IMG/VR virus record: IMGVR_UViG_3300009161_000051
Span: 1-59,310 of that record
From: a virus
Lineage: Duplodnaviria; Caudoviricetes
Direction: 5' to 3' (one strand)
DNA length: 59,310 bases
Position numbers and translations under genes: made by a program. The notes beneath the pieces were generated by a model. That model was not told where the DNA came from and searched no databases. It was given only the letters and a program-made list of their open reading frames with translations. This document shows, one piece after another, positions 300 through 59,310 of this stretch (within the stretch, counting starts at the first letter, position 1; the number at the start of each line of letters is the position of its first letter).

Positions 300-581
300 A
301 TGAAAGGTCGTCATCGTAAGGCCGCTGGTGGCATGGTTGAGAAGGGCGTTGTTGCAAATGACGCCTCCCCAACTGATGTTTACTCAGGTTCCGGCTCTAA
401 TGTTGTTAAGGCTGCTAAACAGCGTAAAGCTGGCGGTAAGGTTTCTGGTTTTATGGCTAAGATGCGGTCTGACCGCCCTGCCCGTAAATCTGGCGGTCGC
501 ACAGGTTCAAACATGAACCCGCTGTCGTCTGCTCATGCAGGAACGGAACCAACGGGCCATAAATCAATGGTCAATTGTTAG
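300..581 (+). CDS. Small basic protein with three KxxGG motifs (probable virion-internal protein)
   Basis: GAGG RBS then ATG at 300; KAAGGMV, RKAGGKV, RKSGGRT; homologous to the partial ORF at 59093. Confidence 0.7.
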   Translation: MKGRHRKAAGGMVEKGVVANDASPTDVYSGSGSNVVKAAKQRKAGGKVSGFMAKMRSDRPARKSGGRTGSNMNPLSSAHAGTEPTGHKSMVNC

Positions 582-613
582 TCTTTGATTTTCTTAAATC
601 ATGGAGTAAGATA

Positions 614-639
614 GGCGGGACTTAACAGTCCCGTCTTTC
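614..639 (+). terminator. GC hairpin with short T tract (possible terminator or leader hairpin)
   Basis: GGCGGGAC-ttaaca-GTCCCGTC-TTTC. Confidence 0.4.
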
Positions 640-654
640 ATATGGGGGCTTCAA

Positions 655-903
655 ATGGCTACTACACCTGCTTGGCAACGCTCTGAAGGCAAATCTCCTT
701 CAGGCGGGTTAAATGAAAAAGGCAGAGCTTCTGCAAAAGCGGAAGGTCATAACCTTAAAGCCCCGACAAAGGATTCAGACAATCCTCGACATAAATCATT
801 TTGCGAGCGTATGACTGGTATGAAGCGTAAGCGCACGGGTGCTGCCGCTGCTGCTGATCCTGATAGCAGGATTAATAAGTCTCTCAGGAAGTGGGGTTGC
901 TAA
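655..903 (+). CDS. DUF6321-like small basic phage protein
   Basis: GGLNEKGRAS...RHKSFCERM...DPDSRINKSLRKWGC pattern recalled for this family. Confidence 0.7.
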   Translation: MATTPAWQRSEGKSPSGGLNEKGRASAKAEGHNLKAPTKDSDNPRHKSFCERMTGMKRKRTGAAAAADPDSRINKSLRKWGC

Positions 904-1067
904 TGTCAGACAAACCATTCTGGGAACAAAAATTACCCAAAGATCATCATACCAAGCACTTGTCCAACAAACAGGAACAAAGTGCTAAAGCTAGAGCAAG
1001 GGCGGCAGGTAGGCCATACCCAAACTTAGTTGACAATGCAGCGGCGTCCCGCAGGAAAGGCAAATAA
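903..1067 (+). CDS. Small conserved phage protein (54 aa, not in ORF track)
   Basis: TAATG coupling to the upstream gene; MSDKPFWEQK...AAGRPYPNLVDN...*. Confidence 0.65.
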   Translation: MSDKPFWEQKLPKDHHTKHLSNKQEQSAKARARAAGRPYPNLVDNAAASRRKGK

Positions 1068-1068
1068 A

Positions 1069-1749: not shown

Positions 1750-1768
1750 TTCAAAATAGGACTGTAAC

Positions 1769-11832: not shown

Positions 11833-12567
11833 ATGGATTATGATACTTATAAAAAGCAAATCTATGTCATGGCGGGTTACACAGTCGATCCAGTAACTGG
11901 GTTGATAACTGATTATGACCAAAACTATCTGACAATTTTGCCAGAGATGATTACGTATGCTGAATTGAGAATGCAGCGTGATCTGGATTTTTTGTCTACC
12001 CAAACGTCTACGACAGCATATAGCTTGACGGCAAACAATAATACTCTGTCGATACCAACAAGTGCTTTTGTAACGCTGCAAACAATTCAAGTTAATGATG
12101 CTTCTGGTCCAACGCCGCTTTTGCCAACAACAAAATCTTTTTTGCAGAATGTTTGGCCTAATGTTTCTGGCGCAGCAGTGCCTCAATATTTTGCTGTATA
12201 CGGTGGCGACAGTGCTACAGCAGGTCAAACATCTCAAAACATAATTTTTGGGCCTTGGCCTGACAGCAGTTACAATCTTACTCTGACGGGGACGATCCGT
12301 TCTGAAACTCTGTCAGACACAAATACGACGACCTTTATCAGTGTGTATTTGCCTGATTTGTTTATCATGGCGTCTATGATTTACATGAGTGGGTATCAGC
12401 GTAATTTTGGTCGAGCAAATGATGATCCGCAAATGGCGATCACATATGAAAGCCAATACAAGTCCTTGTTAATGTCAGCAACGGTTGAAGAATTCCGTAA
12501 GAAGTTTGAGGCCGCTGCGTGGTCTTCAATGTCACCTGCTCCTGTCGCATCACTCACAAGGGGATAA
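11833..12567 (+). CDS. Tail adaptor / tail tubular protein A-like
   Basis: ITYAELRMQRDL...GPWPDSSY...YLPDLFIMAS; precedes the nozzle gene. Confidence 0.6.
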   Translation: MDYDTYKKQIYVMAGYTVDPVTGLITDYDQNYLTILPEMITYAELRMQRDLDFLSTQTSTTAYSLTANNNTLSIPTSAFVTLQTIQVNDASGPTPLLPTTKSFLQNVWPNVSGAAVPQYFAVYGGDSATAGQTSQNIIFGPWPDSSYNLTLTGTIRSETLSDTNTTTFISVYLPDLFIMASMIYMSGYQRNFGRANDDPQMAITYESQYKSLLMSATVEEFRKKFEAAAWSSMSPAPVASLTRG

Positions 12568-12570: not shown

Positions 12571-14706
12571 ATGCCTCATGGCAGTGTAAAAATTATCCCC
12601 GGCGTTGATACGACAAGAACTCCTGCTTTAAATGAAGCTGCGATTTCTGAAACTAATTTGATTAGGTTTTTGCCGGATCGGAATGGTCTTGGATTGCCTC
12701 AAAAGTTAGGCGGCTGGGTAAGGTTTTTTAGTGGACAATTTGTTTCACCAATACGTGACCTTCACGCTTGGCAAGATTTGAATGAATTTAAATGGTTGGC
12801 GGTAGGTGCTGAATTAAGTCTAAGTGCTATTTATAATAGTACCCAAACAGTGATTACGCCAGAATTTTTATCCTCAGATGCGGCTCCTGATTTTTCAATT
12901 GGCGGTGGCCTTCTCTTAGGTGAAGGAACTAACGTCGATAATTTTATAATAACAGAAAGCACAACGCCAGCTTTGGATGGGCTTGAATTAAAAGTTGCTC
13001 AAGGCGGGAACATCGTAACAATCGTTGACGTTGGAAGCGATGTAGCTTTAACCGACATTGTCTATATTAAAACGCCTGTAGCAGTTGGTGGCGGCATTGT
13101 TTATGGAACATACGCAATTTATGCCAGAATTGATAATGATACATATCAAATTCAAGTTGCTTTTAATGCTACGGAGAATGTTGAAAATGGTGGCGCAGTA
13201 CCCCTATTCAACACAACATCTTCAAGTTCATTTGTCACAGTTACATTAGCTAACAATGGTCAATCAGAAGGTGACACCGTAGCATTTTTAGTACCCACAA
13301 CTGTTGGCGGAATTACAGTTTACGGGGAGTATCTTGTTTATAGCGTGATTGATGTAAACCAATTCACCATTGCCGCAACAAATGTGGCTACGTCTACAAC
13401 CAGTGGGTACATGAATGGTGGGGATGTAAGTTTCTATTATTTCCTAGACCTCGGTGCTGGTTCTGGATACGGTCGTGGTGGTTACGGGCAGGGCGGCTAC
13501 GGAACAGGTGGTTCTGCACGAGTCGGGACAAAAATTGAAACAACTGATTGGTATTTGGATAATTTTGGTCAAATATTAATTGCAAATCCGCATGGTGGCG
13601 CAATCTATTATTGGCAACCAAATGGACCATCTAGAACAGCTTTAGTGCTTAAAAATGCTCCCGTAGCTAATAACGGGGTATTTGTTGCAATGCCACAACG
13701 ACAAATTATAGCTTTTGGTTCAACATTTAACGGTTTGGTTGATCCTCTTTTGGTGCGTTGGTGCGATATAAACAATCCTGAAATTTGGAACGGTCAGGCA
13801 ATCAATCAAGCTGGCTCGTATGTAATACCTGAAGGAAGCAAAATTGTTTCAGCTATCCAAGCTCCACAACAGGCAATTTTGTGGACTGACCAGTCAGTAT
13901 GGTCGATGCAGTACATTGGTCCACCTCTTGTTTACGCATTTAACAAAATTGGTACGGGTGTTGGCTCTATATCGCCTAAAAGCGTTGGACTGATGAACAA
14001 TGTTGTTTATTGGATGTCGGAATCGCAATTCAATTTGCTTTCAAGCAATGGTGTTCAAACAATTGCGTGTCCTGTTTGGGACCAAGTATTTCAAAATTTG
14101 AATGAAAGCATTGACGAGTATGGTAACAAGTACACAGATCGGATCAGGTGCGCCACCAATAGTCAATTTGGTGAAGTAACTTGGTATTACCCTTCTGCAA
14201 ATTCCACTGAAAATGATTCATACGTAAAATATAATACGCAGCTTCAGCAGTGGGATTACGGAACTCTTTCAAGGACAGCTTGGGTGGATCAGTCCGTTCT
14301 TGGATCACCAATCGGATCAAGCTCGGATGGTTATCTGTACCAACATGAAATCGGGTACAATAATGGCGACACCGTTATGCTGTCGTCCTTCAAGACAGGT
14401 TATTTTGCTATATCAGAAGCTGATCAACTTTTGTTTGTTGACCAAATTTGGCCTGATATGAAGTGGGGTACTCTTGATAGCGCACAGACAGCAGAAGTGA
14501 ACATTACGTTTTACGGAACAAACTATCCGGGTGACACCCCTATCGTATACGGTCCGTTTACAATGACACAGGCAAAACAGTATATACAAACACGCATTAG
14601 GACACGCCTATTGGCAATTGAAATATCTTCAAATGCTGAACAGCTTGATTCCTTCTGGCGTATGGGTAACGTCAGATATCGTTTCCAACCTGATGGAAGG
14701 TTCTAA
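12571..14706 (+). CDS. Tail nozzle / packaged-DNA stabilisation protein (P22 gp10 / T7 gp12-like)
   Basis: 711 aa; W-rich beta-propeller-like pattern (LVRWCD, ILWTD, VYWMS, EVTWYYPS); ends FQPDGRF. Confidence 0.7.
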   Translation: MPHGSVKIIPGVDTTRTPALNEAAISETNLIRFLPDRNGLGLPQKLGGWVRFFSGQFVSPIRDLHAWQDLNEFKWLAVGAELSLSAIYNSTQTVITPEFLSSDAAPDFSIGGGLLLGEGTNVDNFIITESTTPALDGLELKVAQGGNIVTIVDVGSDVALTDIVYIKTPVAVGGGIVYGTYAIYARIDNDTYQIQVAFNATENVENGGAVPLFNTTSSSSFVTVTLANNGQSEGDTVAFLVPTTVGGITVYGEYLVYSVIDVNQFTIAATNVATSTTSGYMNGGDVSFYYFLDLGAGSGYGRGGYGQGGYGTGGSARVGTKIETTDWYLDNFGQILIANPHGGAIYYWQPNGPSRTALVLKNAPVANNGVFVAMPQRQIIAFGSTFNGLVDPLLVRWCDINNPEIWNGQAINQAGSYVIPEGSKIVSAIQAPQQAILWTDQSVWSMQYIGPPLVYAFNKIGTGVGSISPKSVGLMNNVVYWMSESQFNLLSSNGVQTIACPVWDQVFQNLNESIDEYGNKYTDRIRCATNSQFGEVTWYYPSANSTENDSYVKYNTQLQQWDYGTLSRTAWVDQSVLGSPIGSSSDGYLYQHEIGYNNGDTVMLSSFKTGYFAISEADQLLFVDQIWPDMKWGTLDSAQTAEVNITFYGTNYPGDTPIVYGPFTMTQAKQYIQTRIRTRLLAIEISSNAEQLDSFWRMGNVRYRFQPDGRF

Positions 14707-15056: not shown

Positions 15057-15064
15057 GAAACATC

Positions 15065-15637
15065 ATGCCACTGGTTCAAGGTAAGTCCCAAAAATCAATA
15101 TCGTCAAACATCCGAGAGCTTTCTAACACGGGCCATCCGCGAGATCAGAGCATTGCTATTGCTTTGAATGTTGCACGATCATTGAACAAGCCAAAGCACA
15201 AGGCAGATGGCGGTTCTATGATGGGTGTTGGCTTTTTTGCTAAGGGTGGGGTTACAAACCAGAAAAAAGTTCACACTGGTGCTATTCAAAGCGCAGTGGC
15301 GGGTAGGACTGATCATCTACCAATGCATGTTCCTGAAGGTGCTTATGTCATCCCTGCCGACATTGTATCGGCGTTGGCTGAAGGTAACACCCAAGGTGGG
15401 TATAAAATTTTAGACAGGATGATTGAACAATTCCAAGATGATGGAGAATATTCTCGTGGTGGAGAAGTTCCAATCGTTGCGGCTGGTGGTGAATATGTAA
15501 TACCTACTCATGCAGTTGCAGGGTTTGGAAATGGAAATGTGGATCAAGGTCACAAAATCTTGGATGAGTTTGTGAAAAAAATACGCAAACAGACCATTAA
15601 AACTTTGCAAAAACTTCCCGGCCCAAAAAAGGATTGA
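15065..15637 (+). CDS. Virion protein with three GG motifs and duplicated G[AE]YVIP domain
   Basis: KADGGSM, FAKGGVT, YSRGGEV; GRTDHLPMHVPEGAYVIPADIV and GGEYVIPTHAV. Confidence 0.6.
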   Translation: MPLVQGKSQKSISSNIRELSNTGHPRDQSIAIALNVARSLNKPKHKADGGSMMGVGFFAKGGVTNQKKVHTGAIQSAVAGRTDHLPMHVPEGAYVIPADIVSALAEGNTQGGYKILDRMIEQFQDDGEYSRGGEVPIVAAGGEYVIPTHAVAGFGNGNVDQGHKILDEFVKKIRKQTIKTLQKLPGPKKD

Positions 15638-15646
15638 GAATTTAGC

Positions 15647-16216: not shown

Positions 16217-16227
16217 GGAGACGGGCC

Positions 16228-19941: not shown

Positions 19942-19942
19942 G

Positions 19943-39205: not shown

Positions 39206-39243
39206 TTGCATGGTATGTAAACACCTCAATTGGGAGGTTGTTT

Positions 39244-45613: not shown

Positions 45614-48600
45614 ATGGAAGATTATGATCAGGATATTGCAAATGCCCTGCGTTTAGCACAACCATCAGAAGCAGCTAGAGAAGCACAACGCATACAAGCA
45701 TTCCGAGATCAACAGGCAGCAGACGAGCGTAGGTTTGCTCCTACGATTAACATAAGCAATCAAGGCCAAGTGATGAATGAGGCGCAACGGTATAGACCGA
45801 TGCCTTCAGCCACTGGTGAACCCGTCCAACCTGTCCAACCCGTCCAACCGGGCATGATGGGTCGTGCTTATTCTACAGCAACAGGTGGCAGAAACGCTCA
45901 GGCCGATATGAGCAGTGCTTTAGAAAATTTGCCTCAACCAATGGAATATTTTGATGACGTTGCAAAAGCAGCACGAGAATCAAGTGCATATGCAAAGCAA
46001 GGCATTAATAAAATGGGGGAATCTGGTAACCCTTTCAATCAAGTTGTAGGTGGTGGTGAGTATGCTCTTGGTTCTCTTGGGTATCTAGTTTCCCCTTTTA
46101 CAGGCGCAGTTACAAATTTAGTAACTAATCCGGCTAAAAAAGTTTTTGGTGAACCATTTGCCCAAAGAGCAGACATAGTTGCTAATTTAATAGACCCGTT
46201 TTCTCCAACGGCTTATGTGAAGGCGGGGCTTGCGGCAGCTATCCCTACATTAGCAATGGCTACTATTCCGGCTAAATCTAAAGCGATAGAAACTGCTTTG
46301 CAGGTAGCAAATCAAGCGTCTGATTTAAAAACCCCAGAACAGTTAGCTTTAGAAACAGCGCAAAAAACTGCACCTTTGCCTACACCTGCTTACAATCAGC
46401 CAATAGGCCCATTGTCTCCTCCAGTTGTTCCAAAAGGTTCTTCAGCATCGCAAGCAGTAGATTTGTTAGCTGAGACGCCTAAAGCAGATGCTGATGCTAT
46501 TAGGGCAAATAATCAGGGAACCGGGTTGGTTTACCCTGAAGATGAAGCACTTGAACGGTTAAGACTTAAATTATCACGTAAAGAACCAGCACTTGCTTTG
46601 GGAGAAAAAGCTCAAACCAGTTCTGTTGGCGATCCTTTGAATGAAAGAAGAATTATCCGCGCTCCAAGAGATGCGGAAGGCAACCCAATTGCAGGAAAGC
46701 CTGATTTCACGGTGGGCAAAATTACACCACAAGATTGGGTAAATCGTGCTGAAAGCATGATGAATGATAATGAAATTCAAGAAGCGTCAACGTGGTATGG
46801 AAAAATAAGAAGTATCTTTAACAATTACACAGGTGGTGATTCTGAAAAAACAAATAAATATATGAAGGCTTGGCTTGTAGGGCAGCAAAATGTTGATGTT
46901 GCTGGTTCATTAAAAAATGTGTTTTTACAAGCTGAACAATTTGCTAGAAAAATACCAGAAGCAGAAATGACTGGTGGAGGTATGCCTAACCCAACATATG
47001 CTATCCGTCAGGTTCTTAAAGATGAACCTATTGAATACGGCGTTGGGCAAAAAATTTCTGATTTTGTTGATTCTGCGGAAAATAAACCCGTCAGATCATG
47101 GATGGCAAATCATCCTGATGGCGGGTCGCCTTTTGTCGTTGATGTTCACACTGCAAGAGACACAGGATTGGTTGATCAAAAATTAATCAACCATTTAACT
47201 AAATTAGGATACAACACGGAAGATTTGAAAAATTTAAAACTTGATTTTAGTGATGCAATTTCACCTCAAAAATATGAAAATCGTTCAGAATTTGGGCATG
47301 AAATAACAAATTATTTAAATTCTATTACTTGGAAAGGCAGAAATGATTGGACGCCATTAGAAGTTCAGGCTGTTGGCTGGATGGGGATGACACGTTTAAC
47401 AGCGGATAAAGCAGAAGATGTTGTAAGCGGGTTTGAAAGAAACCTCCGTAGAATTTCTATGGAAGCTGCGCCCGGAGAGGGGTCGCCTATTCATACTTTA
47501 TATAACAACAGATTTAGTGTTTTGTCTTTGCCAGAAAAAGAAACAATTACTCAAAACATTACCAATAAAGCTCTGGAGGATGTGTCAAACCTCGTTGGTA
47601 TTGATTTAAGGTCTATCGCTCATGGATCGGGCGGTTGGAATATGGATATTAACCCATCCAGCGTTGGGCAGGTTTATGCAACTCCACAAGCTGCTCAAAT
47701 GGGTGCAAATATCCTTGGGCATATTTTGCAACAGTCTGAAGTTTGGTCAAATTCAGTAAAACCTTTAACACAAAACCCAAGCAGTTTTGCTATTGATTTT
47801 CTTGAAAATGGCACAACAAATCTACGCGATAATACGCAGCTTGCTGATTTTTGGAGCCGCATTCAAAAAGCAGACCCCGATAAAAAGAAACCTCTTTTTG
47901 TTGGATATCAGCCAATTTCTACACCAGATGGAAGAATTGGTATCCGTGTTTTAATTGATCGTGGTGGAGCAAAATTAGCAGAAACATTGACTTCCGCAAT
48001 TGAAGGGCCGATACAAAAAGAATTAAACAATATAGGATATGATGTTTCTGCTCAGGTGCATGAGGCAGAAATTTACAAAGCACAACATGATTGGAAAGGT
48101 GACCCCAGTGGGCAAAGTTACATTACTGCCGCCAGCAACCTCCTTGGACGAGATTCCACAAGCGATCTCAATAATTTACGGGAAAAATATCAGGAGCAAT
48201 TCCGACAGGAACTTGAGTCCGCAGAAGACAGAACCAAGCGACAAGGAACTTCAACAATTGATCAACAAGGACTACAAGGATCACCAGAAGAGGTATCGCG
48301 CCAAATTGACCAACGTGCCACCGCGCAAAATTACATTGAAGGAAATGCGGGAGCTTTTGAACAAAATTCATCCGATGTTCTGACAAAAGATGTTGGTTCA
48401 GGGCGGAACTTTACCGGGTTTTTTGCAAATATTACTTCTGGACTTACTGGCAAACCAACAACAATGGTTGGTTATAAACCTGCGTTTGATATTTCAAAAA
48501 TCAAACCGTTTTCAGAAGAGTATTTAAAACACATTGGAAATTTTGATGACCATATTGGTTCATCAATTCCCGCTTTTAGAGAAATACAACAGTCCGTTGG

Positions 48601-50806
48601 AAATTCAATTGTAAAAACTTTTGGGGAAGGTGCTAATATGCTTGATATTGGCGCGTCTGAAGGAGCTTTGGCAAAGACAATTACCCAATTAAGCAACGGA
48701 AAAATTAAAACAGTTGCATTAGACCCTAACCCGTCAATGCAAGCGTCATTTAACAATATTTCTCAAGTTCCCGGTTCAGAATACTACCTTGGTGCTTATG
48801 GTCATGCTGATGATGAAGGTAAAGTAGCTTGGACAGAAGACGCTATTCTTAAAGACAAAAACGGTGTTGATAGGGATAATCCACACGCAAATATAGACAT
48901 TCCTTATTACGCCCCTGATAGAAAATTTAATGTTGTCCATGAAGCAATGGTTTTTCAATTTATGAACAACAATCGTTCTGCTCAAATACAACGCGCAAAA
49001 GAACTTATGGAACCTAATGGTATTTTAATTTTAGAAGAAAAATTTATTCACGGCGACGGCTTAAATTTAGAAGAATTTTTGGCAAATGAAGTTAAAAAAG
49101 ATGCTTACAAAGAGCAATTTTTTACCCGTGAAGATATTGAAAGAAAACGCCAAGCTATTCTAAGCGGGAAAGAAGATGAATTTGTTGAAGGAGAAAAAGC
49201 AAAAGAAGCAGCCGTTGTTGGAATGCATGATTTGCAAGTTTCTCCCGGACATATTGAAAATGAATTAAAAAAGAATTTTAAAGTTGTTACACAATTTTGG
49301 GATAGTGGAAATTTCAAAGGCTATGTAGCATCAGATGATCCTGCTACATTGTCTCGTTTTTTAGCTAATATGCCATCTACAAACAGTGAATATTCTACAA
49401 TTCAAACACCAAGAATGGTTACGTCTCAAAGTAAAACACTTAATTCTCGTATTGATATGCCTCACAAAGATATTATGGCTCGCGATAAAGTTTTAGAAGA
49501 TAACGTATTAAAATTAACAAATAACGAGATTACCCCTGAGCAATGGGATGCGTTAGTTAATGAAAGAAAACCTGTTGAGCCATACTCAATGGATAGAATT
49601 CCTGTACCTGCAACACCAGAACAGGCTATCAATGCTTTAAACAAAGACAAAAAAGAAAAATATGGTTTAACGGATCAATATTACAAAGAAGGTGACCCCG
49701 TTAAACTACGATTGGATATTCCTGCTTATGAATATTATAGCACATGGGTTAATGCTATCCATGATGGAAGGTCTGGCGACGGGAAAAACCCTACTACCTA
49801 TAGCAGCGTAAGCGCGGCAACTAATGTTGAATTTGATGTATCCAAAACAGGATCAATGAAAACAGCAAAAGGAGGCAGCAAAGCCCCATATGCAACTATG
49901 AGCGGCAAATACAAGTCTGTAACGCCTGAAGAAGCATATGCTAAAGCTCAACAGTACTTTAATGATCCGCAATGGGTTCAAATTGGTATGGACCCAACAC
50001 GGCATTCTTTCTTTTATACCCGTGAAGGCATGAAGCCTGTTACAAGTGCGGAAGAAGTCCTTCAGATAGGCCCATTGGTTTTTGCAAAAAATCCAACTTA
50101 CGGCAACAGGGCTAATTATAAATTTAACCAAGGCGGTCGTGTAGGGTATGATAACGGCGGTGGAACTGGGCAAGGAATAGCCGCAGATTACATAAGCAAA
50201 GCACTTATGGCTGCTCTTCAAGGAACACAAGATGCTCCCGGCATAGCTGCGACACACGCTGGAGATTATGCAACAGAAGTTGCGGCTCAACATTTGGGTG
50301 CATTGCCTGAAGTCGCGCATGGCGTATTTGCAAATTTGCCTGAAGCTGCTAAAGGAGAACTTCTTTCAAGACCAACATTAGGCATTGATTGGTGGAATGA
50401 ATTTTTTAAAGAACAAGGTTTGCAAAGCCACCAAGTAGACCCAATGGTGCATGATTTAGCATTAGCTACAGCAATTCTTTCTCCAATTTCCGATACATTA
50501 AAATTAGGAACTAAAGCAGCGGAAATTGGCATTGAATCTGTTCCAGTTGTACAAAAACTTATAGCTCCCGCTAAAGAAATTAAACATTTTCCAATAGGAA
50601 CAAGCCATCCTAAAGTTGAAACAATAGCTCATGGTCTTGCAAAAACGGAAAAAGCGGGAACTAAAGTTGGTTATGGTTTAACAGCAAATGCTGAATTAAA
50701 TCCACAATCATACGGCCCACCTGAAGGCCAAGTTAGTGCAACCCATCATGCCCGTGGTGGTTCAGTTGACCATGCGCTACAGTTAGCGCATTATTACAGT
50801 AATTGA
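45614..50806 (+). CDS. Large polyvalent (probably packaged) protein with HhH-glycosylase-like and CmoA-like SAM-dependent domains
   Basis: WY..; GQKISDF; VVDVHTAR; EVQAVGW; FDDHIGSSIP..MLDIGASEG..VFQFM..PNGILILEEK..GNF; C-terminal GG motifs. Confidence 0.7.
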   Translation: MEDYDQDIANALRLAQPSEAAREAQRIQAFRDQQAADERRFAPTINISNQGQVMNEAQRYRPMPSATGEPVQPVQPVQPGMMGRAYSTATGGRNAQADMSSALENLPQPMEYFDDVAKAARESSAYAKQGINKMGESGNPFNQVVGGGEYALGSLGYLVSPFTGAVTNLVTNPAKKVFGEPFAQRADIVANLIDPFSPTAYVKAGLAAAIPTLAMATIPAKSKAIETALQVANQASDLKTPEQLALETAQKTAPLPTPAYNQPIGPLSPPVVPKGSSASQAVDLLAETPKADADAIRANNQGTGLVYPEDEALERLRLKLSRKEPALALGEKAQTSSVGDPLNERRIIRAPRDAEGNPIAGKPDFTVGKITPQDWVNRAESMMNDNEIQEASTWYGKIRSIFNNYTGGDSEKTNKYMKAWLVGQQNVDVAGSLKNVFLQAEQFARKIPEAEMTGGGMPNPTYAIRQVLKDEPIEYGVGQKISDFVDSAENKPVRSWMANHPDGGSPFVVDVHTARDTGLVDQKLINHLTKLGYNTEDLKNLKLDFSDAISPQKYENRSEFGHEITNYLNSITWKGRNDWTPLEVQAVGWMGMTRLTADKAEDVVSGFERNLRRISMEAAPGEGSPIHTLYNNRFSVLSLPEKETITQNITNKALEDVSNLVGIDLRSIAHGSGGWNMDINPSSVGQVYATPQAAQMGANILGHILQQSEVWSNSVKPLTQNPSSFAIDFLENGTTNLRDNTQLADFWSRIQKADPDKKKPLFVGYQPISTPDGRIGIRVLIDRGGAKLAETLTSAIEGPIQKELNNIGYDVSAQVHEAEIYKAQHDWKGDPSGQSYITAASNLLGRDSTSDLNNLREKYQEQFRQELESAEDRTKRQGTSTIDQQGLQGSPEEVSRQIDQRATAQNYIEGNAGAFEQNSSDVLTKDVGSGRNFTGFFANITSGLTGKPTTMVGYKPAFDISKIKPFSEEYLKHIGNFDDHIGSSIPAFREIQQSVGNSIVKTFGEGANMLDIGASEGALAKTITQLSNGKIKTVALDPNPSMQASFNNISQVPGSEYYLGAYGHADDEGKVAWTEDAILKDKNGVDRDNPHANIDIPYYAPDRKFNVVHEAMVFQFMNNNRSAQIQRAKELMEPNGILILEEKFIHGDGLNLEEFLANEVKKDAYKEQFFTREDIERKRQAILSGKEDEFVEGEKAKEAAVVGMHDLQVSPGHIENELKKNFKVVTQFWDSGNFKGYVASDDPATLSRFLANMPSTNSEYSTIQTPRMVTSQSKTLNSRIDMPHKDIMARDKVLEDNVLKLTNNEITPEQWDALVNERKPVEPYSMDRIPVPATPEQAINALNKDKKEKYGLTDQYYKEGDPVKLRLDIPAYEYYSTWVNAIHDGRSGDGKNPTTYSSVSAATNVEFDVSKTGSMKTAKGGSKAPYATMSGKYKSVTPEEAYAKAQQYFNDPQWVQIGMDPTRHSFFYTREGMKPVTSAEEVLQIGPLVFAKNPTYGNRANYKFNQGGRVGYDNGGGTGQGIAADYISKALMAALQGTQDAPGIAATHAGDYATEVAAQHLGALPEVAHGVFANLPEAAKGELLSRPTLGIDWWNEFFKEQGLQSHQVDPMVHDLALATAILSPISDTLKLGTKAAEIGIESVPVVQKLIAPAKEIKHFPIGTSHPKVETIAHGLAKTEKAGTKVGYGLTANAELNPQSYGPPEGQVSATHHARGGSVDHALQLAHYYSN

Positions 50807-50819
50807 TTAGGAGAGCGGT

Positions 50820-51335
50820 ATGGGTTTGTTTGATTCAATGTTTGGCGGCGGCGGCGGAGATAATGCAAATTATATCGGCGGCTCAGACATGGGTGGCTAT
50901 ACGGGTTCAGGTAATAACCAAAACACATACGGCCCCGGCGGCAACTTGAGCAAAGAAGATTATAAAGAGCAATATGGCGGCAATGATAACAAAAATAACA
51001 ATAATCAAAACAATAACCAAAACAACAACAAACCAGCAGAACCAGTAGCTGATCCATATGTTGCCCCAGTATATGTCCCTCAAGAGGCATACACGCCGCC
51101 GCCACAGGCTGAATATGAATCACTTGGTGCAGTTCCTGCCGGGAACGCAAAGATGTCCTATCAGTCTTCTCCGGGGGTTGTATCAAAAAAATCTCTTGAA
51201 ATGGCCCGTGGAGGACAAGTTCATGGCAATGATGTTTCTGATATAGCCATAAGATTGGCAAAATTAATAATGGAAGAAATGAAATCTGATCCATTGTTTG
51301 AACGGAAGATTCAGAGTATCTTATCAAAAATGTAA
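50820..51335 (+). CDS. Low-complexity (Asn-rich) protein with GG motif
   Basis: AGGAG RBS; NNNNQNNNQNNN; MARGGQV..DVSDIAIRLA. Confidence 0.55.
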   Translation: MGLFDSMFGGGGGDNANYIGGSDMGGYTGSGNNQNTYGPGGNLSKEDYKEQYGGNDNKNNNNQNNNQNNNKPAEPVADPYVAPVYVPQEAYTPPPQAEYESLGAVPAGNAKMSYQSSPGVVSKKSLEMARGGQVHGNDVSDIAIRLAKLIMEEMKSDPLFERKIQSILSKM

Positions 51336-51364
51336 CTGCAATATTGCAGCTAAGGAGCAGGTCT

Positions 51365-53791
51365 ATGCATGAATATCTTAAAGCGGCTCGTTCCGGTGCT
51401 GCAAAACGTCTAAAAACAATTGCGACTGAAAAATCTCAAAAAGTTGACTCTTCTACATGGTCTCCAGCACCTGAATTGGAAGCTGGCAAGAAAACAGGTA
51501 TGCGACCCATCAGCAAACGGGCTTTTAAGTCTGGTGGCAAGGTAGTTGGCAAGATTGCTAAAGTACGTGCAGATCGTGTTGCACGGAAGAGCGGCGGCAA
51601 AGTTACATCAGAGCAGCCTCCTGTAGATCGGTACATCAACCGCGATCTTAAAAAGGCAAATGATTATCGTGAAGGCGGTGACAGCCACGTTGGTGCTTTA
51701 AAGAGCGGTGGCAGAACAAAGAAAGATATTGGCGGCGGGATGCCGTTTGAAGGTGCTAATACTGGTATTCCAGTTGGGCGCGGTAATGCCAAATTTCTTA
51801 ATACAGGCTTGAAGCGTGGTGGAGCAGCTAAAAAGAATGCAGGTGGACCACTTTTGGCTGGACCAGCATCACCAGAGATGATGGCTAAAAGATACGCCAC
51901 AGGCCCATCAGCGGTAGTTGCTCCTAATGCTCCACCTCGTAAGTTGGGCGGTCGTGCAAATAAAGCAAACGGTGGCTCAACTGATGAATTCATTAATCGT
52001 CAGGTAAAAAGATCAGAAGACGAGGAAGTGAAATTCCCTAAGAATGTTCCTTTGCCTCGTCCTCGTCCAAAGTCTTTGGATGCTTCCGAGTATCGTTACA
52101 AAGGTCCAAAGCGTGATCTTCCTAAGCCCGGTCTGCCCGGATACAAGAAGGGTGGCAAAGCTAATTGGGAAGGTTCTGCAAAGGATGAAGCGCAGGACAA
52201 GAAACTTGCAGCCAAGCGCGGCATTTCCATGAAGCAATGGGAAGCGTCCAAGGCTGACGACAAGCATGATTCTCAACAGTCCATGAAGGGGTTGAAGAAG
52301 GGTGGTCGCATTGATAAAGAAGATGGTGGGCCAATTCATCATTTTAGATTAAACTTGCAAAATGGTAAAGATAAAAGGACTCAAAATCTTTCATTTGGTG
52401 GAGAATCTCCAGCAGATGCGCTTATTAATAGAATTAAATTTGCAAATGCAGGTGGTTGGGACGTTACTGGAGCAAAACATACGGGGAGCTATGTTGGGGA
52501 TAAAAAATCAGCGGGGAGTAGTGCTGGTTTAATGAAGAAGGGCGGTCGCGCTCACAAAGCTGGCGGTGGAATGAATGAGCAAGCAAAGATGGCTATGATC
52601 ATTGCAAATGACCCCCATAGCAAACGGGATAAAATTGCGGGTTTCTTGCCACCTTCTACAAGAACATCTCTTAGCCTCCCTAGTTTGGAAAGCGGTGCTT
52701 CTAAAATGTCTGTTAAAAAAGCTCATGGCGGTCGCGCTCACAAGGCAAGTGGCGGTCTTAGTGAATTTGGTCAGGCCTTTAAGGAGGGTCGTGCCGCAAT
52801 GCTTGCAGGTGGCCCAAAGACGTTTGAGTACAATGGCAAGATGTATAATACAAACCTTGCCAAGCCATCTGAGGCGGGTAATCCACCTCGTCGCGGCGTT
52901 CCAAATCCACCTTCTGCAACAGAACGCTCGTACCGTGATCTTGAAAATACAACGGCAAAGAACAAAGCAAATTTTGAATATTCTAAACGAGTGGATGAAG
53001 TTGCCAAGGGTGTAGATGAGGCAGCAAAAAAAAGAAATGAAGAATCTGTAGCTCAAAATTACAGAAATAATTTAGCAGCAGCGGGTAAAACTGCTATAGA
53101 AAAACAAAGGGATCGTAGCAGTCAGGCAGATACTTCTTCTCCTCTGGCTCCTGCCACAGGATCAATGACTGGCCAAGTTGCTGATCCAACGACCATCCGT
53201 CGTCAATCAGGTCAACGGTCTTACATTCCGGGTATCCGTATGGGCGATCCTCGTCTTGGTGAACCAGCAATGGTCTTTGGGGGTGAGAAGCGTGGTGGAC
53301 GTATTGAAAAACGTGCAAAGCGCAAAGATGGCGGCAAAGTTTTCACTGGTGGTTCATACCCTAACAAGATTCCCGGCGTTGTTCCCGGCGGTCGCGTCAC
53401 TCGTGCTGAAGGCGGCGCAGTTGGCAAGAAGGGTGGCACCAACATAAACATCATCATCTCGCCTAAGTCTCCAGATCAGGGTCTTGGCGGAATGCCTCCT
53501 ATGCCTATGGATGCTGGCCCACCTCCTATGCCTCCTATGATGCCTCCAGAGGCTGGTCCGCCTCCAATGGGCGGTGGCATTGATCCTAACGTGTTGGCGA
53601 TGTTGGCTGCTAAGGGTGGCGGCGGTGGCCCTCCTCCAATGGGTGGCCCAATGATGCCTCCTCCCGGCGCACCTCCTATGATGCGTAAATCGGGTGGTCG
53701 CACTACATATCCAATCACAACAGCTTCTGGTGGTGGCAACGCTAGGCTTGAAAAAGTTCCTGCGTATGGGCTGAAACAGCCGACGTTCTAA
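51365..53791 (+). CDS. Basic polyprotein-like virion protein with about 19 KxxGG motifs
   Basis: AAGGAG RBS before MHEYLK; repeated [FLRYMK]KxGG and KxxGG; Pro/Met-rich C-terminus. Confidence 0.7.
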   Translation: MHEYLKAARSGAAKRLKTIATEKSQKVDSSTWSPAPELEAGKKTGMRPISKRAFKSGGKVVGKIAKVRADRVARKSGGKVTSEQPPVDRYINRDLKKANDYREGGDSHVGALKSGGRTKKDIGGGMPFEGANTGIPVGRGNAKFLNTGLKRGGAAKKNAGGPLLAGPASPEMMAKRYATGPSAVVAPNAPPRKLGGRANKANGGSTDEFINRQVKRSEDEEVKFPKNVPLPRPRPKSLDASEYRYKGPKRDLPKPGLPGYKKGGKANWEGSAKDEAQDKKLAAKRGISMKQWEASKADDKHDSQQSMKGLKKGGRIDKEDGGPIHHFRLNLQNGKDKRTQNLSFGGESPADALINRIKFANAGGWDVTGAKHTGSYVGDKKSAGSSAGLMKKGGRAHKAGGGMNEQAKMAMIIANDPHSKRDKIAGFLPPSTRTSLSLPSLESGASKMSVKKAHGGRAHKASGGLSEFGQAFKEGRAAMLAGGPKTFEYNGKMYNTNLAKPSEAGNPPRRGVPNPPSATERSYRDLENTTAKNKANFEYSKRVDEVAKGVDEAAKKRNEESVAQNYRNNLAAAGKTAIEKQRDRSSQADTSSPLAPATGSMTGQVADPTTIRRQSGQRSYIPGIRMGDPRLGEPAMVFGGEKRGGRIEKRAKRKDGGKVFTGGSYPNKIPGVVPGGRVTRAEGGAVGKKGGTNINIIISPKSPDQGLGGMPPMPMDAGPPPMPPMMPPEAGPPPMGGGIDPNVLAMLAAKGGGGGPPPMGGPMMPPPGAPPMMRKSGGRTTYPITTASGGGNARLEKVPAYGLKQPTF

Positions 53792-54435: not shown

Positions 54436-54828
54436 ATGCCGTACATGAGAATGCATCATGCGGAAGACCCAAAGCAGATGATCATGAAAGAATTCAGCGA
54501 TATCAACAATATTGAGGTTTTCAACACAAGCATCATTGTAGCGATCTATGTCCGCCCGGATACGACCAAGAGCGGGATCGTTCTGCCCGGTCAGACACGG
54601 GATGAGGACAAATATCAAGGAAAAGTCGGTCTTGTTGTCAAAAAAGGCAACTTGGCTTTTGTCGATGACAACGAGACTTGGTTCAAAGATGTTTCAGTTG
54701 ATGTTGGGGATTGGGTTTATTTCCGTCCTTCTGAAGGCTGGGCAATGACAATTCATGGCGTTCTTTGCCGTGTGTTGAGAGACGTAGACGTGCGTGGAAA
54801 GATTTCAGCACCAGATGAGGTTTGGTAA
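54436..54828 (+). CDS. GroES-like co-chaperonin
   Basis: TKSGIVLP...VGLVVKKG..AF...VDVGDWV. Confidence 0.8.
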   Translation: MPYMRMHHAEDPKQMIMKEFSDINNIEVFNTSIIVAIYVRPDTTKSGIVLPGQTRDEDKYQGKVGLVVKKGNLAFVDDNETWFKDVSVDVGDWVYFRPSEGWAMTIHGVLCRVLRDVDVRGKISAPDEVW

Positions 54829-56388: not shown

Positions 56389-56985
56389 ATGGCAAACACT
56401 TCTGCGCCATTTGGATTCCGTCAGTATGGTGGAACAGGCTCTGCTCCTACGTATGAGCAAGTTCCAGCACTGATATCATCCTCATACTCGACCGCAATCT
56501 TTTTTGGCGATCCTGTATACCCGCTAACCACTGGCTATATTGCTGGCTCGTCTGAAACTCCCGGCACAGTTCAAATTGCTGGCGTGTTTGTTGGGGCACA
56601 GTATCTCTCAACCTCCCAAAAGCGTACAGTTTGGAGTAACTATTGGCCCGGTTCTGACGCAACTGGCGACGTTACAGCTTACATTATTAACGATCCAAAC
56701 GCTCGTTTCTTGGCACAAGTTGGCGGTTCCACAACCACAGGACTTACAAATGCTGATATCGCAGCAAACGTACAGTTTGCTTACGGTACTGGAACCACTG
56801 CAAACGGAATTTCAGGCGCATATGTTGTCTATAATTCTGCCACAACTACCAATACGCTTCCATTCCGGGTAGTAAACCTTGTCACAACACCTCCGGGTGC
56901 TGAAGGTACTGCTTCCGGTGCTTACAATCTTGTTGTTGTCGCGTTTAATAACGTGTCCACCAAGCAACTCTTATCAGTCGGCTAA
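56389..56985 (+). CDS. Capsid decoration/cement protein
   Basis: MANTSAPFGFR...IFFGDPV...GVFVG...DPN.RF; directly before the MCP. Confidence 0.65.
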   Translation: MANTSAPFGFRQYGGTGSAPTYEQVPALISSSYSTAIFFGDPVYPLTTGYIAGSSETPGTVQIAGVFVGAQYLSTSQKRTVWSNYWPGSDATGDVTAYIINDPNARFLAQVGGSTTTGLTNADIAANVQFAYGTGTTANGISGAYVVYNSATTTNTLPFRVVNLVTTPPGAEGTASGAYNLVVVAFNNVSTKQLLSVG

Positions 56986-56998
56986 GGAGTAAGGTATC

Positions 56999-57913
56999 AT
57001 GGCTGTTAATCTCTCAGCAATTAAAGACCTTTTGCTCCCCGGTCTACGTGGAGTTGAAGGCAAGTACGAGATGATCCCATCTCAGTACGACAAGATGTTC
57101 ACCAAGCATGAGTCAAAGATGGCTCTTGAGCGTACTGCTGAAATGCGGTTCCTCGGCTTGGCACAGTTGAAAACAGAAGGCGGTCAGACCGCTTTTGATA
57201 ACAGTGCTGGTGAGCGGTACATCTACAATCAGGAGCATACTGAAATTGCTCTCGGTTACGCGATTACCCGCAAAGCCATCGACGATAATCTGTATAAGAC
57301 ACAGTTTATGCCGTCCAACCTCGGCCTGATTGAATCCTTTCAGCAAACCAAGGAAATTTACGGTGCAAACATTCTTAATACAGCTACGACGTATAATTCC
57401 TCAATTGGCGGTGACGGTGTTGCACTTTGCTCCACGGCGCATCCTATTGACGGAAGTACAGTTGCTAATACACCAAGCGTTCAACTTGATCTCAATGAAG
57501 CATCGCTCCTTAACAGTATGATAGGTGTGCGGACAAACTTCAAAGATCAGGCTGGCCTGAAGGTATTTGCCCGTGCGCGTAAGCTCATTGTCCCGCCACA
57601 GCTTGAACCAGTTGCTATCCGTCTTACAAAGACAGAACTGCGTCCGGGTACAGCAGATAATGATGTTAATGCCATAATGATGTCTTCCGGCGGTCTGCCA
57701 GAAGGTTACATGGTTAATGACTTCTTGACCTCTGCGTATGCTTGGTTCTTGCTGACCAACATCGACGGTCTGTCGTATATGGAACGTGTGGCCTTTGAAA
57801 CCGACATGCAGGTCGATTTTGTTACAGATAACCTTCTTGTCAAGGGCTATGAGCGTTACTCGTTTGGTTACTATAACTGGCGTTCAATCTTTGGCTCGTT
57901 CCCAACATCGTAA
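56999..57913 (+). CDS. Major capsid protein
   Basis: LLPGL..; HTEIALGYAIT..AIDDNLY; GGDGVALCSTAHP; KLIVPPQL; ERYSFG..NWR.IFGS. Confidence 0.9.
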   Translation: MAVNLSAIKDLLLPGLRGVEGKYEMIPSQYDKMFTKHESKMALERTAEMRFLGLAQLKTEGGQTAFDNSAGERYIYNQEHTEIALGYAITRKAIDDNLYKTQFMPSNLGLIESFQQTKEIYGANILNTATTYNSSIGGDGVALCSTAHPIDGSTVANTPSVQLDLNEASLLNSMIGVRTNFKDQAGLKVFARARKLIVPPQLEPVAIRLTKTELRPGTADNDVNAIMMSSGGLPEGYMVNDFLTSAYAWFLLTNIDGLSYMERVAFETDMQVDFVTDNLLVKGYERYSFGYYNWRSIFGSFPTS

Positions 57914-57931
57914 TCCAAAGGAGAAGGTAAC

Positions 57932-59083
57932 ATGGCTATTTCAGCATTCTCCGGTCCCGTAATTTCTTTTGGTCAGAACACCATTGGAACTACAACGGAT
58001 TACAATCCACAATTAGGCCCGTCGCTCTTCTGGGGCGGCGTTGGTCGCCTTGATCCTCGTCCTAATTTTGCTTACATCCCCGGTCAGAACTACGGTGCAT
58101 TTACCGCTGGTTTTGCAACGTCGGATACTCAGACCATCAGTGCTACTCCTTATGCGCTTGGTTCTGCTGCAATCGCAGCAGCCGCAGCAACTACGGCTAG
58201 CACAGCTATGACGCTTGTTTCAACAAACTCAACGTCAACAGGTGTCTCAATTAGCGCATCGTGCATCAACTATAATACTGGTGCAACGGTGACTGGCCTT
58301 TTGCTTCTTGATGGTTTTGCATCCTTCACGGGTGTGGTAGCAAGCAGCATCTTGACCGTATCGTCCCTGACTGGGGTTATTACGATTGGGATGACCTTGA
58401 CTGGCACTGGCGTTAATTCTGGTACTACTGTTGTAAATCAGCTTACTGGGCCTCCCGGTGGTGCTGGAACTTATACGGTACAAGGTGACGATACTGTTGG
58501 TTCCACGACTATAACGGGACAAGCAGCTTTAGGGCCAACCGCATTTGGGCAGCCTTTCAGCGATACTAATTCCGTTTATCTCTGGAACCCACAGGCTCTT
58601 GTTTCTCGCGCAGTGAGTATTGTTCCGGTTTCTGGTACATCAACGGCGGCAGTTATCTTTACTGTTTCTGGTTACGACATTTATGGCGTACCAATGAGTG
58701 AAGCAATTACTGTTCCAACAAGCACGACGACAGCTACTACTACCAAGGGCGCAAAAGCGTTTAAGTATATTGCTTCTGTAACACCTAGTGTTACAAATGC
58801 AATTACTTATAGCGTTGGTACAACCGACATCTATGGTCTTCCAATTCGTTCTGATAACTTTGGCGATTTAGCGATCAACTACAACGCCACAGGTATTACG
58901 GCGAGTACGGGGTACGTCGCGGCAGTGACCACAAGTCCTGCAACGACGACTACAGGTGACGTTCGTGGAACGTATGCATTACAATCGGCGGCAGACGCTT
59001 CCAAGCGGCTTGTTGTTCGTCAATTTGTAACCCCAGCCAATATGGGTTCCATCACGGGCCTGTTCGGTGTAACCCAAGCATAG
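57932..59083 (+). CDS. Virion structural protein (T/S/G/A-rich)
   Basis: MAISAFSGPV start after the MCP; beta-rich. Confidence 0.65.
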   Translation: MAISAFSGPVISFGQNTIGTTTDYNPQLGPSLFWGGVGRLDPRPNFAYIPGQNYGAFTAGFATSDTQTISATPYALGSAAIAAAAATTASTAMTLVSTNSTSTGVSISASCINYNTGATVTGLLLLDGFASFTGVVASSILTVSSLTGVITIGMTLTGTGVNSGTTVVNQLTGPPGGAGTYTVQGDDTVGSTTITGQAALGPTAFGQPFSDTNSVYLWNPQALVSRAVSIVPVSGTSTAAVIFTVSGYDIYGVPMSEAITVPTSTTTATTTKGAKAFKYIASVTPSVTNAITYSVGTTDIYGLPIRSDNFGDLAINYNATGITASTGYVAAVTTSPATTTTGDVRGTYALQSAADASKRLVVRQFVTPANMGSITGLFGVTQA

Positions 59084-59092
59084 GAGTAAGCC

Positions 59093-59310
59093 ATGAAGGG
59101 CCATAAGCACAACTACGGAACCGCTGTTCATCACGAACATCCACGGGCCGAACATAAGAAGGGTGGCAAGGTTAATTCTGAGCATCCTATGGAAGGCCAT
59201 TTTGACAACGACGAAGCACCTAAAGAAGTTTATGCGGGTGCTGGTTCTAAAGTTGTAAAAGAAGCTGAAGAGAAAAAGCACGGCGGCAAGGTCCATAAGG
59301 CCCGTGCCAA
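59093..59310 (+). CDS. Partial small basic protein with KxxGG motifs (homologue of 300..581)
   Basis: AGGAG RBS; HKKGGKV, NDEAPKEVYAGAGSKVVK, KKHGGKV. Confidence 0.65.
   Translation, partial: MKGHKHNYGTAVHHEHPRAEHKKGGKVNSEHPMEGHFDNDEAPKEVYAGAGSKVVKEAEEKKHGGKVHKARA

Follow-up and report, generated by a model that had tools for sequence, protein, structure and literature searches.

The Gly-Gly motif and its carriers

The DNA analysed here (the window) is the whole of the IMG/VR virus record IMGVR_UViG_3300009161_000051, 59,310 bases long, a complete record of an SU10-like podovirus. Its gene content places it among the short-tailed phages as a distant relative of coliphage SU10. The subject of this study is a short peptide motif around two adjacent glycines (the GG motif), which recurs in proteins encoded after the nozzle gene, directly after the portal gene and at the two ends of the record, and which in several of them is joined to a short helix to form a two-part tag. 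The motif is genuine and under selection as a peptide; it characterises one clade of uncultured SU10-like podoviruses and comes in two flavours, a basic one and a two-part one. The carriers, together with one gene lying among them, are the following open reading frames (ORFs).

288..581, plus strand: small basic protein of 97 amino acids (aa), copy A; motifs at 318..338, 423..443 and 483..503
15065..15637, plus strand: 190-aa protein with an N-terminal helical hairpin, a disordered linker and a folded C-terminal domain
15647..16216, plus strand: GNAT-like protein of 189 aa, between the genes of the 190-aa and 1237-aa proteins; phrog_1249 acetyltransferase match, E 8.8e-6
16228..19941, plus strand: 1237-aa ejection-type protein; S74 domain at about 17074..17220, GG pairs at 17290..17337 and 17776..17832, lysozyme-like stretch
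19943..22336: 797-aa protein; two-part tag (GG, helix, GG) at 22166..22324, plus strand, the best tag match in the window
45614..50806, plus strand: 1730-aa giant; helix-type tag at 45632..45658, GG pair at 50123..50167, GG plus helix at 50741..50794
50820..51335, plus strand: 171-aa Gly/Asn-rich protein; GG plus helix at 51201..51269, then a conserved C-terminal helix
51344..53791, plus strand: 815-aa polybasic Gly-rich protein, probable start ATG at 51365; main carrier of (R/K)K-x-GG-(R/K)(A/V/T)
59093..59308, plus strand: small basic protein, copy B, truncated where the record stops; motifs at 59153..59173 and 59273..59293

The loose motif was defined as [FYMHKR]xxGGxx, and the strict form adds [VIAT] two places after GG. 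All instances quoted in the original prediction exist in the named ORFs: three at 288..581, three at 15065, four at 16228 (where one more was found), one at 19943 (with a second two residues before the stop), the paired FNQGG/YDNGG and HARGG at 45614, MARGG at 50820, 20 in the ORF starting at 51344 or 51365, and two at 59093. The proposed number of at least eight carrier proteins was inflated. Bases 1..287 and 58796..59082 share 80% nucleotide identity, and the ORF at 288..581 is 44% identical to the truncated ORF at 59093 over 52 residues (E 1.6e-9). The record ends are therefore diverged overlapping copies, the two ORFs count as one gene, and the carrier genes number seven. The segments 1..581 and 58796..59310 look like a circularly permuted genome assembled, with wrap-around, from two related strains, rather than like a true terminal repeat.

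Enrichment was measured against a null in which each protein was shuffled separately with its composition kept, using 2000 shuffles for the whole proteome and 3000 for blocks defined by position. Over the whole proteome the loose motif was observed 65 times versus 29.0 ± 5.1 in the shuffled sets and the strict motif 34 times versus 8.5 ± 2.9, and none of the 2000 shuffles reached either observed value. A single protein, at 51344..53791, contributes 20 of the 65 loose instances. Divided by group, the loose motif was found 25 times versus 5.4 expected in the 815-aa protein and the two small basic ORFs, 20 versus 7.5 in the five other proteins named earlier, 16 versus 10.3 in the remaining 30 virion-module ORFs (p 0.06) and 4 versus 5.7 in the 46 non-structural ORFs (p 0.81). 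The check proposed for the shared signal, enrichment over composition in structural versus non-structural proteins, accordingly shows it in the two carrier groups and not in the non-structural ORFs. The five-protein group had been picked for the motif, so the test was repeated on blocks set by position alone (14709-22336 and 45614-51335), which gave 20 instances versus 7.8 ± 2.8, a value reached by none of 3000 shuffles. The residue three places before GG (-3) was also tested given that a GG is present. It falls in the motif class in 25 of 44 cases for the 815-aa and small basic proteins, in 20 of 50 for the five named proteins and in 20 of 115 for the rest, against a background class frequency of 0.21 (Fisher p 2.6e-6 and 0.0029 for the two carrier groups).

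Two proteins are marginal when tested alone, the one at 16228 with p 0.19 for the loose and 0.05 for the strict motif, and the one at 19943 with p 0.25 and 0.036; their case rests on positional conservation in relatives. By eye, the motif had not been seen used in this way in replication, terminase and capsid proteins; the large terminase subunit does hold one instance and the capsid protein two, with no enrichment in either. Two further proteins score for reasons unrelated to the tag, namely the GH108 endolysin (2 versus 0.22, from a conserved GH108 motif) and the nozzle protein at 12571 (5 versus 1.3, from a Gly/Tyr-rich insert). The same excess is seen in four complete relatives, with z of 2.7-4.7 for the loose and 4.6-7.5 for the strict motif. 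Proteins that reach significance there are again of the 815-aa, small basic, S74-bearing ejection and giant post-portal kinds. Across 160 related loci the observed/expected ratio of the strict motif, which recounts homologous positions and so reports conservation rather than independent events, is 14 for the 815-aa family, 6.5 for the 190-aa, 6.1 for the 1730-aa, 4.4 for the 797-aa and 2.8 for the 1237-aa families, compared with 0.2 for 62 nozzle proteins and 0.8 for 74 portals (portals are not enriched, 0.6-0.8).

The basic flavour is carried mainly by the 815-aa protein, which contains about twenty basic repeats (20 motifs versus 4.4 expected; 39 GG versus 16.6 expected), with an isoelectric point (pI) of 10.3 and a net charge of +8.8 per 100 aa. 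All 34 homologues encoded next to portals have 4-19 motifs each. Residue preferences taken from 479 isolated GG pairs in these 34 proteins are R at -6 (30%), G/A at -4 (48%), R/K at -3 (40%) and K at -2 (46%) before GG, and R/K at +1 (53%) and A/V/T at +2 (58%) after it. The GG columns are among the few invariant ones in the family, although mean column identity is 23%. A profile of its N-terminal 130 positions found 757 cluster representatives in 1.84 billion proteins, and among the 150 of these that were listed, which are less than 50% identical to one another, the domain lies at or near the N-terminus in every one. These 150 hold 1925 loose motifs versus 430 expected and 1228 strict motifs versus 95; each has at least 13 motifs per 1000 residues, and the median net charge is +9.4 per 100 residues. 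The Atlas model of the 815-aa protein has a predicted local distance difference test score (pLDDT) of 0.46, which predicts disorder, and AlphaFold with an alignment of the conserved first 132 residues of the family gave a pLDDT of 56.7 and a predicted template modelling score of 0.21, with the GG segments below 50.

Glycine-rich basic repeat families are represented in Pfam, for example by the KGG stress repeat. No Pfam family matched the 815-aa protein at E<=0.01, and none of 95 family representatives had a match at E<=1e-4. The only recurrent Pfam match of the family at E<=1, below the cut-off, is Fusello_VP2. In the ESM Atlas the 815-aa and 190-aa proteins fell only among unnamed viral clusters; the nearest named candidate, a crAss cargo protein, scored 0.77, within the chance range, and was rejected. 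DUF6496 (PF20106) occurs between GG motifs in one of 29 family members (E 2.6e-10) and has no match in the window. A conserved module of about 55 residues lies between two GG motifs in 10 of the 29 members (loci L003, L010, L020 and L032, among others) and gives a sub-threshold 20-residue match to the N-terminus of Fusello_VP2, a virion DNA-binding protein (best E 3.5e-4). The small basic protein at 288..581 (pI 11.1) has three motifs versus 0.58 expected (p 0.016; strict p 0.0005); a module of 33 residues in it is 58% identical (E 4e-8) to residues 62-94 of the 815-aa protein. Encoded beside the capsid genes, the small basic protein bears 2-4 repeats of the motif, and homologues of 84-138 aa are present in complete relatives. 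The 815-aa carrier looks like a polybasic disordered repeat protein rather than tagged cargo.

In the block after the nozzle gene, the 190-aa protein matches phrog_2423 over residues 1-46 (E 2.3e-14; 2.6e-16 in a second scan). Two of its motifs (15200..15220 and 15236..15256) lie in the linker and the third at 15449..15469. The first GG (G49, G50) is invariant or near-invariant in 37 homologues, and inserts of up to about 300 aa occur in the family between the GG after the hairpin and the GG pair before the C-terminal domain. The AlphaFold model has a pLDDT of 79, and the first two motifs fall in its sole disordered stretch, residues 43-66, below 50. At one aligned position of this family, three places before GG, R, H, K, F and Y all occur, which justifies the odd residue class of the earlier motif. 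A helix followed by GG, related to the tag, ends the N-terminal hairpin. The hairpin was tried as a common tag and rejected, its own profile being significant on the protein itself alone (other tags E>=0.17). Foldseek of the model against the PDB gave no match at E<=0.001, and a wide VIA-align search returned generic helical hairpins alone, over residues 5-49 with Z<=5.0, barely covering the C-terminal domain.

The 1237-aa protein matches the phrog_4287 DNA ejection protein over residues 4-345 (E 1.4e-24) and has a Peptidase_S74 match (E 5.8e-7) in its N-terminal part. The sequence H-F-x-x-GG follows the S74 domain in nine of the nine homologues whose S74 end could be located, and the second GG pair precedes a phrog_90 endolysin match at residues 539-630 (E 6e-6). 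For this lysozyme-like stretch Pfam and PDB sequence searches were blank, and PHROG alone matched. Together with the disordered linker of the 190-aa protein, these positions bear out the proposal that the motif falls at domain boundaries. As an intramolecular chaperone, the S74 domain is usually the last part of a fibre protein and releases itself by cleavage. In the 1237-aa protein it stands inside the chain, about 890 residues follow it, and the same layout with variable C-terminal parts is found in 40-odd relatives. The 797-aa protein completes the block, with the tag profile described below matching residues 742-794 (E 8.5e-9). In its family of ten members, 10 of 15 invariant columns lie in the last 60 residues (R740, G746, G747, A753, T771, L775, D779, A785, L786 and A789).

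An acetyltransferase within an ejection-protein block is unusual. The GNAT-like gene is kept in five of five complete or near-complete relatives, and the profile of its family returned three matches in the PDB at E<=1, all acetyltransferases (E 0.18-0.27). Modification of the Lys-rich motif by this protein would be a speculative role.

The two-part tag and its distribution

The non-basic carriers show a motif of an aromatic or basic residue, then mostly A/S, then x-GG-x-V/I. The large ORFs found directly after the portal in related loci have unrelated bodies and mostly alike C-termini, in which GG is followed by a few residues and a short helix. The resulting tag, of about 25 residues, reads (aromatic/basic)-x-x-G-G-x-(V/I/T), then 1-8 residues, then the three-turn amphipathic helix (N/D)(N/D)-A-(I/L)-x-N-A-L-R-(I/L/M)-A, often with another GG. 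A profile was built from 11 C-terminal ends chosen by pattern from the stored ORFs and iterated four times. Searched against 2824 unique ORFs, it gave 48 domain hits at E<=0.01; a set shuffled locally, in blocks of 30 residues, gave none. Forty-five hits are in proteins encoded directly after the portal, three in the 797-aa family and none elsewhere. Thirteen lie in the first 26 residues, as the helix without GG, 17 lie within 25 residues of the end and the others are internal.

Among complete post-portal ORFs of at least 300 aa, 16 of 47 carry the tag in the last 50 residues (shuffled, 0), and the helix occurs in the first 40 residues of 20 of 66 post-portal ORFs (shuffled, 0). By comparison, 323 other complete ORFs of like size gave five C-terminal hits, all in the 797-aa family, and no N-terminal ones. 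When all 359 proteins of five complete genomes were searched, the four hits below E 0.01 were two post-portal proteins and two of the 797-aa family. The matches within the window are as follows.

797-aa protein, C-terminus: E 8.5e-9, as above
1730-aa protein, N-terminus: E 0.016
171-aa protein, near the C-terminus (residues 129-138): E 0.032
1237-aa protein, just after S74 (residues 363-373): E 0.081
1730-aa protein, C-terminus: E 1.4

The 1730-aa giant contains six motifs versus 2.3 expected (p 0.019) and, at residues 975-1200, a phrog_4752 / CmoA-like methyltransferase domain. Only five partial homologues were found in 80 portal loci, which marks its gene as a variable slot, and the order of portal, variable giant or giants and 815-aa family is conserved in four complete relatives. 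The 171-aa protein has four motifs versus 0.62 (p 0.003), and the sole homologue found (in L035) keeps its C-terminal 35 residues at 71% identity. The metagenomic GenBank phage MW202675 encodes three post-portal proteins, with the annotations 'peptidase M15', 'hypothetical protein' and 'type I restriction enzyme'; by eye, all three have tag-like C-termini and two of the three helix-type N-termini, and one of these ORFs stops three residues past GG. A second C-terminal module starting with x-x-GG was seen in L063, L069, L072 and L081 on post-portal proteins without the helix tag; its GG is followed by a few residues, HP, and then I-P-G-V-H-I ... G-x-P-x-F-x-G.

The post-portal giants are mosaic, and their homology blocks begin or end at tags. 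A block of about 350 residues ends at a tag in L010 (443), L074 (1276), L036 (1338) and L038 (1206), and another block begins at a tag in L010 (421) and L023 (636). The sequence past the internal tag of L022 (450-469) corresponds to the N-terminus of separate genes in L016, L020 and L024. Codon usage was compared over 38 distinct DNA versions of the nine-residue helix core. Five Leu, six Arg and four Ala codons are used in it, GG is written in 10 different codon pairs, and 65% of the residues identical between pairs are encoded by different codons; mean identity is 0.58 for nucleotides versus 0.52 for amino acids. The many synonymous codons at conserved residues indicate selection on the peptide, not on the DNA. 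The motifs lie in segments predicted to be disordered, yet they are conserved, and disorder plus conservation is typical of short docking motifs. Since unrelated mosaic giants and one ejection-protein family share the tag, the idea of a shared signal gains support beyond GG alone. As proposed originally, that signal would mark diverse head cargo; this is supported in part, for the giants and the 797-aa family, and the 815-aa carrier looks different.

Search for a reader and the genome context

Scans of the 84 ORFs against Pfam, PHROG and NCBIfam found no peptidase except the self-cleaving S74 chaperone domain, and no prohead protease. Six-frame searches with PF00770 and PF02902 (Peptidase_C5 and C48) gave no match at E<=10, which leaves room for a very remote homologue or a host enzyme, and Peptidase_C39 (PF03412) likewise gave none at E<=10. 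The pattern H[ED]xxH is absent from every virion protein, its sole instance lying in the large terminase. Profiles compared with the PDB returned nothing useful for the scaffold-like 310-aa family (best E 0.82) and the head-module 198-aa family (best E 0.63), and nothing for the head-module 189-aa family. The earlier statement that no prohead protease is recognisable therefore holds after all these searches. The scaffold-like protein of 310 aa is acidic and weakly matches Mu protein I in its scaffold portion. The capsid protein of the window is short (304 aa) and the scaffold-like gene lies apart from it, an arrangement seen in heads that do without a protease, such as those of P22 and T7. The portal is a candidate for the reader.

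The main structural and packaging genes that frame the carriers are listed below; a GH108 endolysin is also encoded, as found by Pfam and PHROG scans.

11833..12567: SU10-type adaptor, from the Pfam scan
12571..14706: nozzle-like protein, 711 aa
36579..37151: terminase small subunit
37523..39205: terminase large subunit
43325..45604, plus strand: SU10-type portal (PF23899 SU10_portal, E 6e-13)
56999..57913: capsid protein, 304 aa

By portal, the nearest cultured relatives, at 32-35% identity, are the Pelagibacter phages HTVC027P and HTVC023P, the Caulobacter phages RW, RLK, GB2A and KcrB and the Roseobacter phages CRP-901 and CRP-902; MW202675 is closer, with a portal of 65% identity. Related phages number in the hundreds in freshwater viromes, where 594 matches to the portal and 333 to the nozzle were obtained. 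A nucleotide search of the phage collection with the window gave no match, and none of the cultured phages searched has the 815-aa or 190-aa families.

Several other genes of the window deserve mention. A GroES-like co-chaperonin gene (54436..54828) lies in the head-assembly module between portal and scaffold; it is also present at L163 8929..9360 and L164 25089..25556 and is conserved as far as Caulobacter phage RW and Pelagibacter phage HTVC027P. The stretch 39238..40204, which comes after the large terminase gene, holds four tandem small ORFs of 68-91 aa, three of which match one another and are alike at the start, with a motif of the type AADEIERLRE. After the small basic protein, an 82-aa ORF at 655..903 is a stand-alone DUF6321 domain (E 2.3e-16) with its own S-G-G; PHROG families have this domain at the C-terminal end of proteins that are 99 to 928 residues long. 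Regulator-like genes encode a GcrA-like cell-cycle regulator (28109..28651), a protein with a DnaA C-terminal helix-turn-helix (26647..27078) and a protein with an RNA polymerase alpha C-terminal domain (41013..41645). These three are possible host-takeover regulators, and the GcrA-like gene, together with the two others, hints at an alphaproteobacterial host.

Possible roles of the tag and comparison with known systems

We propose that the two-part GG and helix element is a head-loading or docking tag with a Gly-Gly hinge, a reading to which we assign a probability of about 0.45. In this proposal the Gly-Gly hinge would free the short amphipathic helix, which would bind a constant part of the procapsid: the portal, the scaffold, the interior of the shell or another internal protein. 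Any module bearing the label would in this way enter the head and be ejected from it afterwards. A label would be kept at every junction when modules are shuffled, and each exchangeable module would bring its own. The tagged proteins are probably inside the virion, as suggested by synteny with SU10, by the position after the portal and by analogy with polyvalent proteins. The 815-aa and small basic proteins would also be internal, as multivalent, DNA-associating or charge-neutralising components, and maybe use the same reader.

Several observations weigh against this proposal. Neither the library scans nor the PDB-profile searches found a reader of the tag. The loci that trained the profile also served to test it, so that its own family is favoured, though the shuffled control gave 0. 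Of the 48 hits, 18 are internal, where a purely terminal address label would be unneeded, and 31 of the 47 complete post-portal ORFs have no C-terminal tag at profile level, about 13 of them being degenerate by eye. Apart from the protein at 19943, the window's own matches are weak (E 0.016 to 1.4). The placement inside the virion leans on synteny. The same head module is found in Caulobacter phage RW and Pelagibacter phage HTVC027P, which lack the 815-aa and 190-aa families, the enrichment and the tag, so the tag is not needed for this head type. In the 815-aa family the tag helix is rare (three hits, two at E<=0.01, in 2 of the 150 representatives), and the two flavours may be unrelated or functionally separate.

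That the motifs are plain flexible linkers with no specific reader, in which Gly-Gly hinges with basic or aromatic neighbours connect the modules of proteins that have to unfold and thread the tail channel, while polybasic repeats bind the packaged DNA, is in our view rather unlikely. Such linkers combined with DNA-binding basic repeats account well for the 815-aa family. In their favour are the low-confidence disordered segments that hold the motifs (Atlas pLDDT 0.46 for the 815-aa protein), the median net charge of +9.4 per 100 aa in the 150 listed representatives of the 815-aa family, the weak likeness to the DNA-associated fusellovirus VP2 family and the inserts of variable length between motifs. 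Simple linkers are seldom invariant, however. In families whose column identity is 23-31%, the GG pairs are among the few columns that never vary, and positions -3, -2, +1 and +2 are constrained as well. The helix is explained poorly, since unrelated proteins share it and it is conserved even at the very ends of chains, which require no linker. We consider it unlikely that the motifs are processing sites, at which a protease would cut polyprotein-like internal proteins at GG or remove a terminal targeting helix. Junction motifs do coincide with gene boundaries in other genomes, the sequence past internal GG resembles natural N-termini (the 13 hits in the first 26 residues; 20/66), the MW202675 ORF ends three residues after GG, and 815-aa members hold inter-GG modules that exist as stand-alone families (DUF6496 and, below threshold, Fusello_VP2). 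Precedents are the proteases of adenovirus and of African swine fever virus (ASFV), which cut after the second Gly of Gly-Gly-Xaa (PMC1198262), and the self-processing proposed for polyvalent phage proteins (PMC5512222). Set against these points are the lack of any protease family in the 84 ORFs and of C5, C48 and C39 in six frames at E<=10, the absence of HExxH from the virion proteins, and a capsid and scaffold arrangement typical of protease-free heads. Moreover, conservation extends to both sides of GG (R/K at +1, 53%; A/V/T at +2, 58%), and about twenty cuts in the 815-aa protein would yield peptides of 5-30 residues.

A recombination joint acting at the DNA level, with boundary sequences kept because they promote exchange of modules between phages, would account for the homology blocks of the mosaic giants breaking at tags, but it is very improbable: 65% of identical residues are differently encoded, nucleotide identity is 0.58 and no long identical DNA is present. 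Virtually negligible is the explanation by chance or composition, in which Gly- and Lys-rich proteins yield the pattern unaided. The carriers are indeed Gly-rich (8-14% Gly), only some show an excess of GG, and the proteins at 16228 and 19943 are not significant with the loose motif. Against this, composition-preserving shuffles never reach the observed counts, the test conditional on GG is significant, and the result is repeated in four genomes and 150 representatives less than 50% identical, with the motif conserved in position. Chance and composition are refuted for the carrier set as a whole.

By analogy, the closest precedent is the capsid targeting sequence (CTS) of phage T4, with encapsulin peptides as a second analogue. 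The T4 CTS is common to the divergent internal proteins IPI-III, combines determinants of targeting and processing, and is thought to allow the loading of varied anti-host proteins, according to passages of PMC9026906. It resembles the proposed label in being a short peptide common to the ends of internal proteins that are basic, ejected and otherwise divergent. It differs in being N-terminal, about 10 residues long and cut at (L/I)-x-E by the prohead protease gp21, in a myovirus, whereas the GG tag has about 25 residues, occurs at both kinds of terminus as well as at junctions within the chain, comes from a podovirus with no detectable protease and is dissimilar in sequence. The consensus of encapsulin peptides differs from the GG tag. 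These short, terminal, Gly-containing cargo-loading peptides suffice to load diverse cargo into an HK97-fold shell (abstracts of PMC11866011 and PMC8346489). They bind the shell protein itself, and internal copies and a helix are not among their features.

The adenovirus and ASFV proteases prefer M/L/I at P4, whereas the window motif prefers R/K/H/F/Y/M at -3 and K/A at -2. In those viruses, core proteins, some very basic, have x-x-G-G-x sites at module boundaries that are cut by clan CE cysteine proteases (PMC1198262, in part). The window similarly places x-x-G-G-x sites at module boundaries of putative internal proteins, but adenovirus and ASFV are eukaryotic viruses of another capsid lineage, and six-frame searches of the window found no C5 or C48 peptidase. 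For the double-glycine leader system, the Peptidase_C39 domain was likewise not found in six frames. The polyvalent proteins of Iyer, Burroughs, Anand, de Souza and Aravind (2017) are giant mosaic proteins in late or virion neighbourhoods, predicted to be packaged, injected and split (PMC5512222, in part). The 1730-aa post-portal giant with its methyltransferase-like domain resembles them, as do the mosaic blocks among its relatives and the annotated functions of the MW202675 post-portal proteins; their proposed zinc metallopeptidase processing domain is absent here, as the virion proteins lack HExxH. A term search of PMC5512222 found neither 'glycine' nor 'linker'. In SU10 (Kuravirus), gp20-24 are ejection proteins encoded after the tail genes, present in the virion and absent after genome release (PMC9509320, in part). 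The window shares the portal and adaptor families and a block of about five genes after the nozzle, including a cell-wall-degrading one; the likeness to the SU10 ejection proteins is one of gene order, with no sequence similarity shown. The passages of PMC9509320 mention no tag, and 'cleav' and 'protease' have no occurrences in them. A term search of the open-access literature found no Gly-Gly or helix tag described on podovirus ejection proteins, which is not proof of absence in print.

A more elaborate scheme of modular cargo loading, in which label-flanked modules would be recruited by one receptor and joined for ordered ejection while a histone-like GG-repeat protein coats the DNA, is quite unlikely in our estimation. 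Its junctions would be either covalent, and cut at GG by an unrecognised enzyme, or non-covalent, and effectors would be freely swapped. In this scheme the GNAT-like enzyme may modify K-x-GG-K sites, for which acetylation of the histone H4 tail provides an analogy.

The choice of head-loaded proteins in short-tailed phages is poorly understood outside T4. If the head-loading proposal is true, a single label would unite hundreds of fast-evolving proteins that are unrelated to one another. Sequence alone would then allow a prediction of the proteins that an abundant group of uncultured environmental phages injects, and the variable post-portal modules would stand out as a large pool of likely anti-defence or host-takeover effectors. 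The label could also serve as a portable tag with which foreign proteins are brought into phage heads. With its 757 unannotated clusters, the 815-aa family would be a new class of internal polybasic phage protein.

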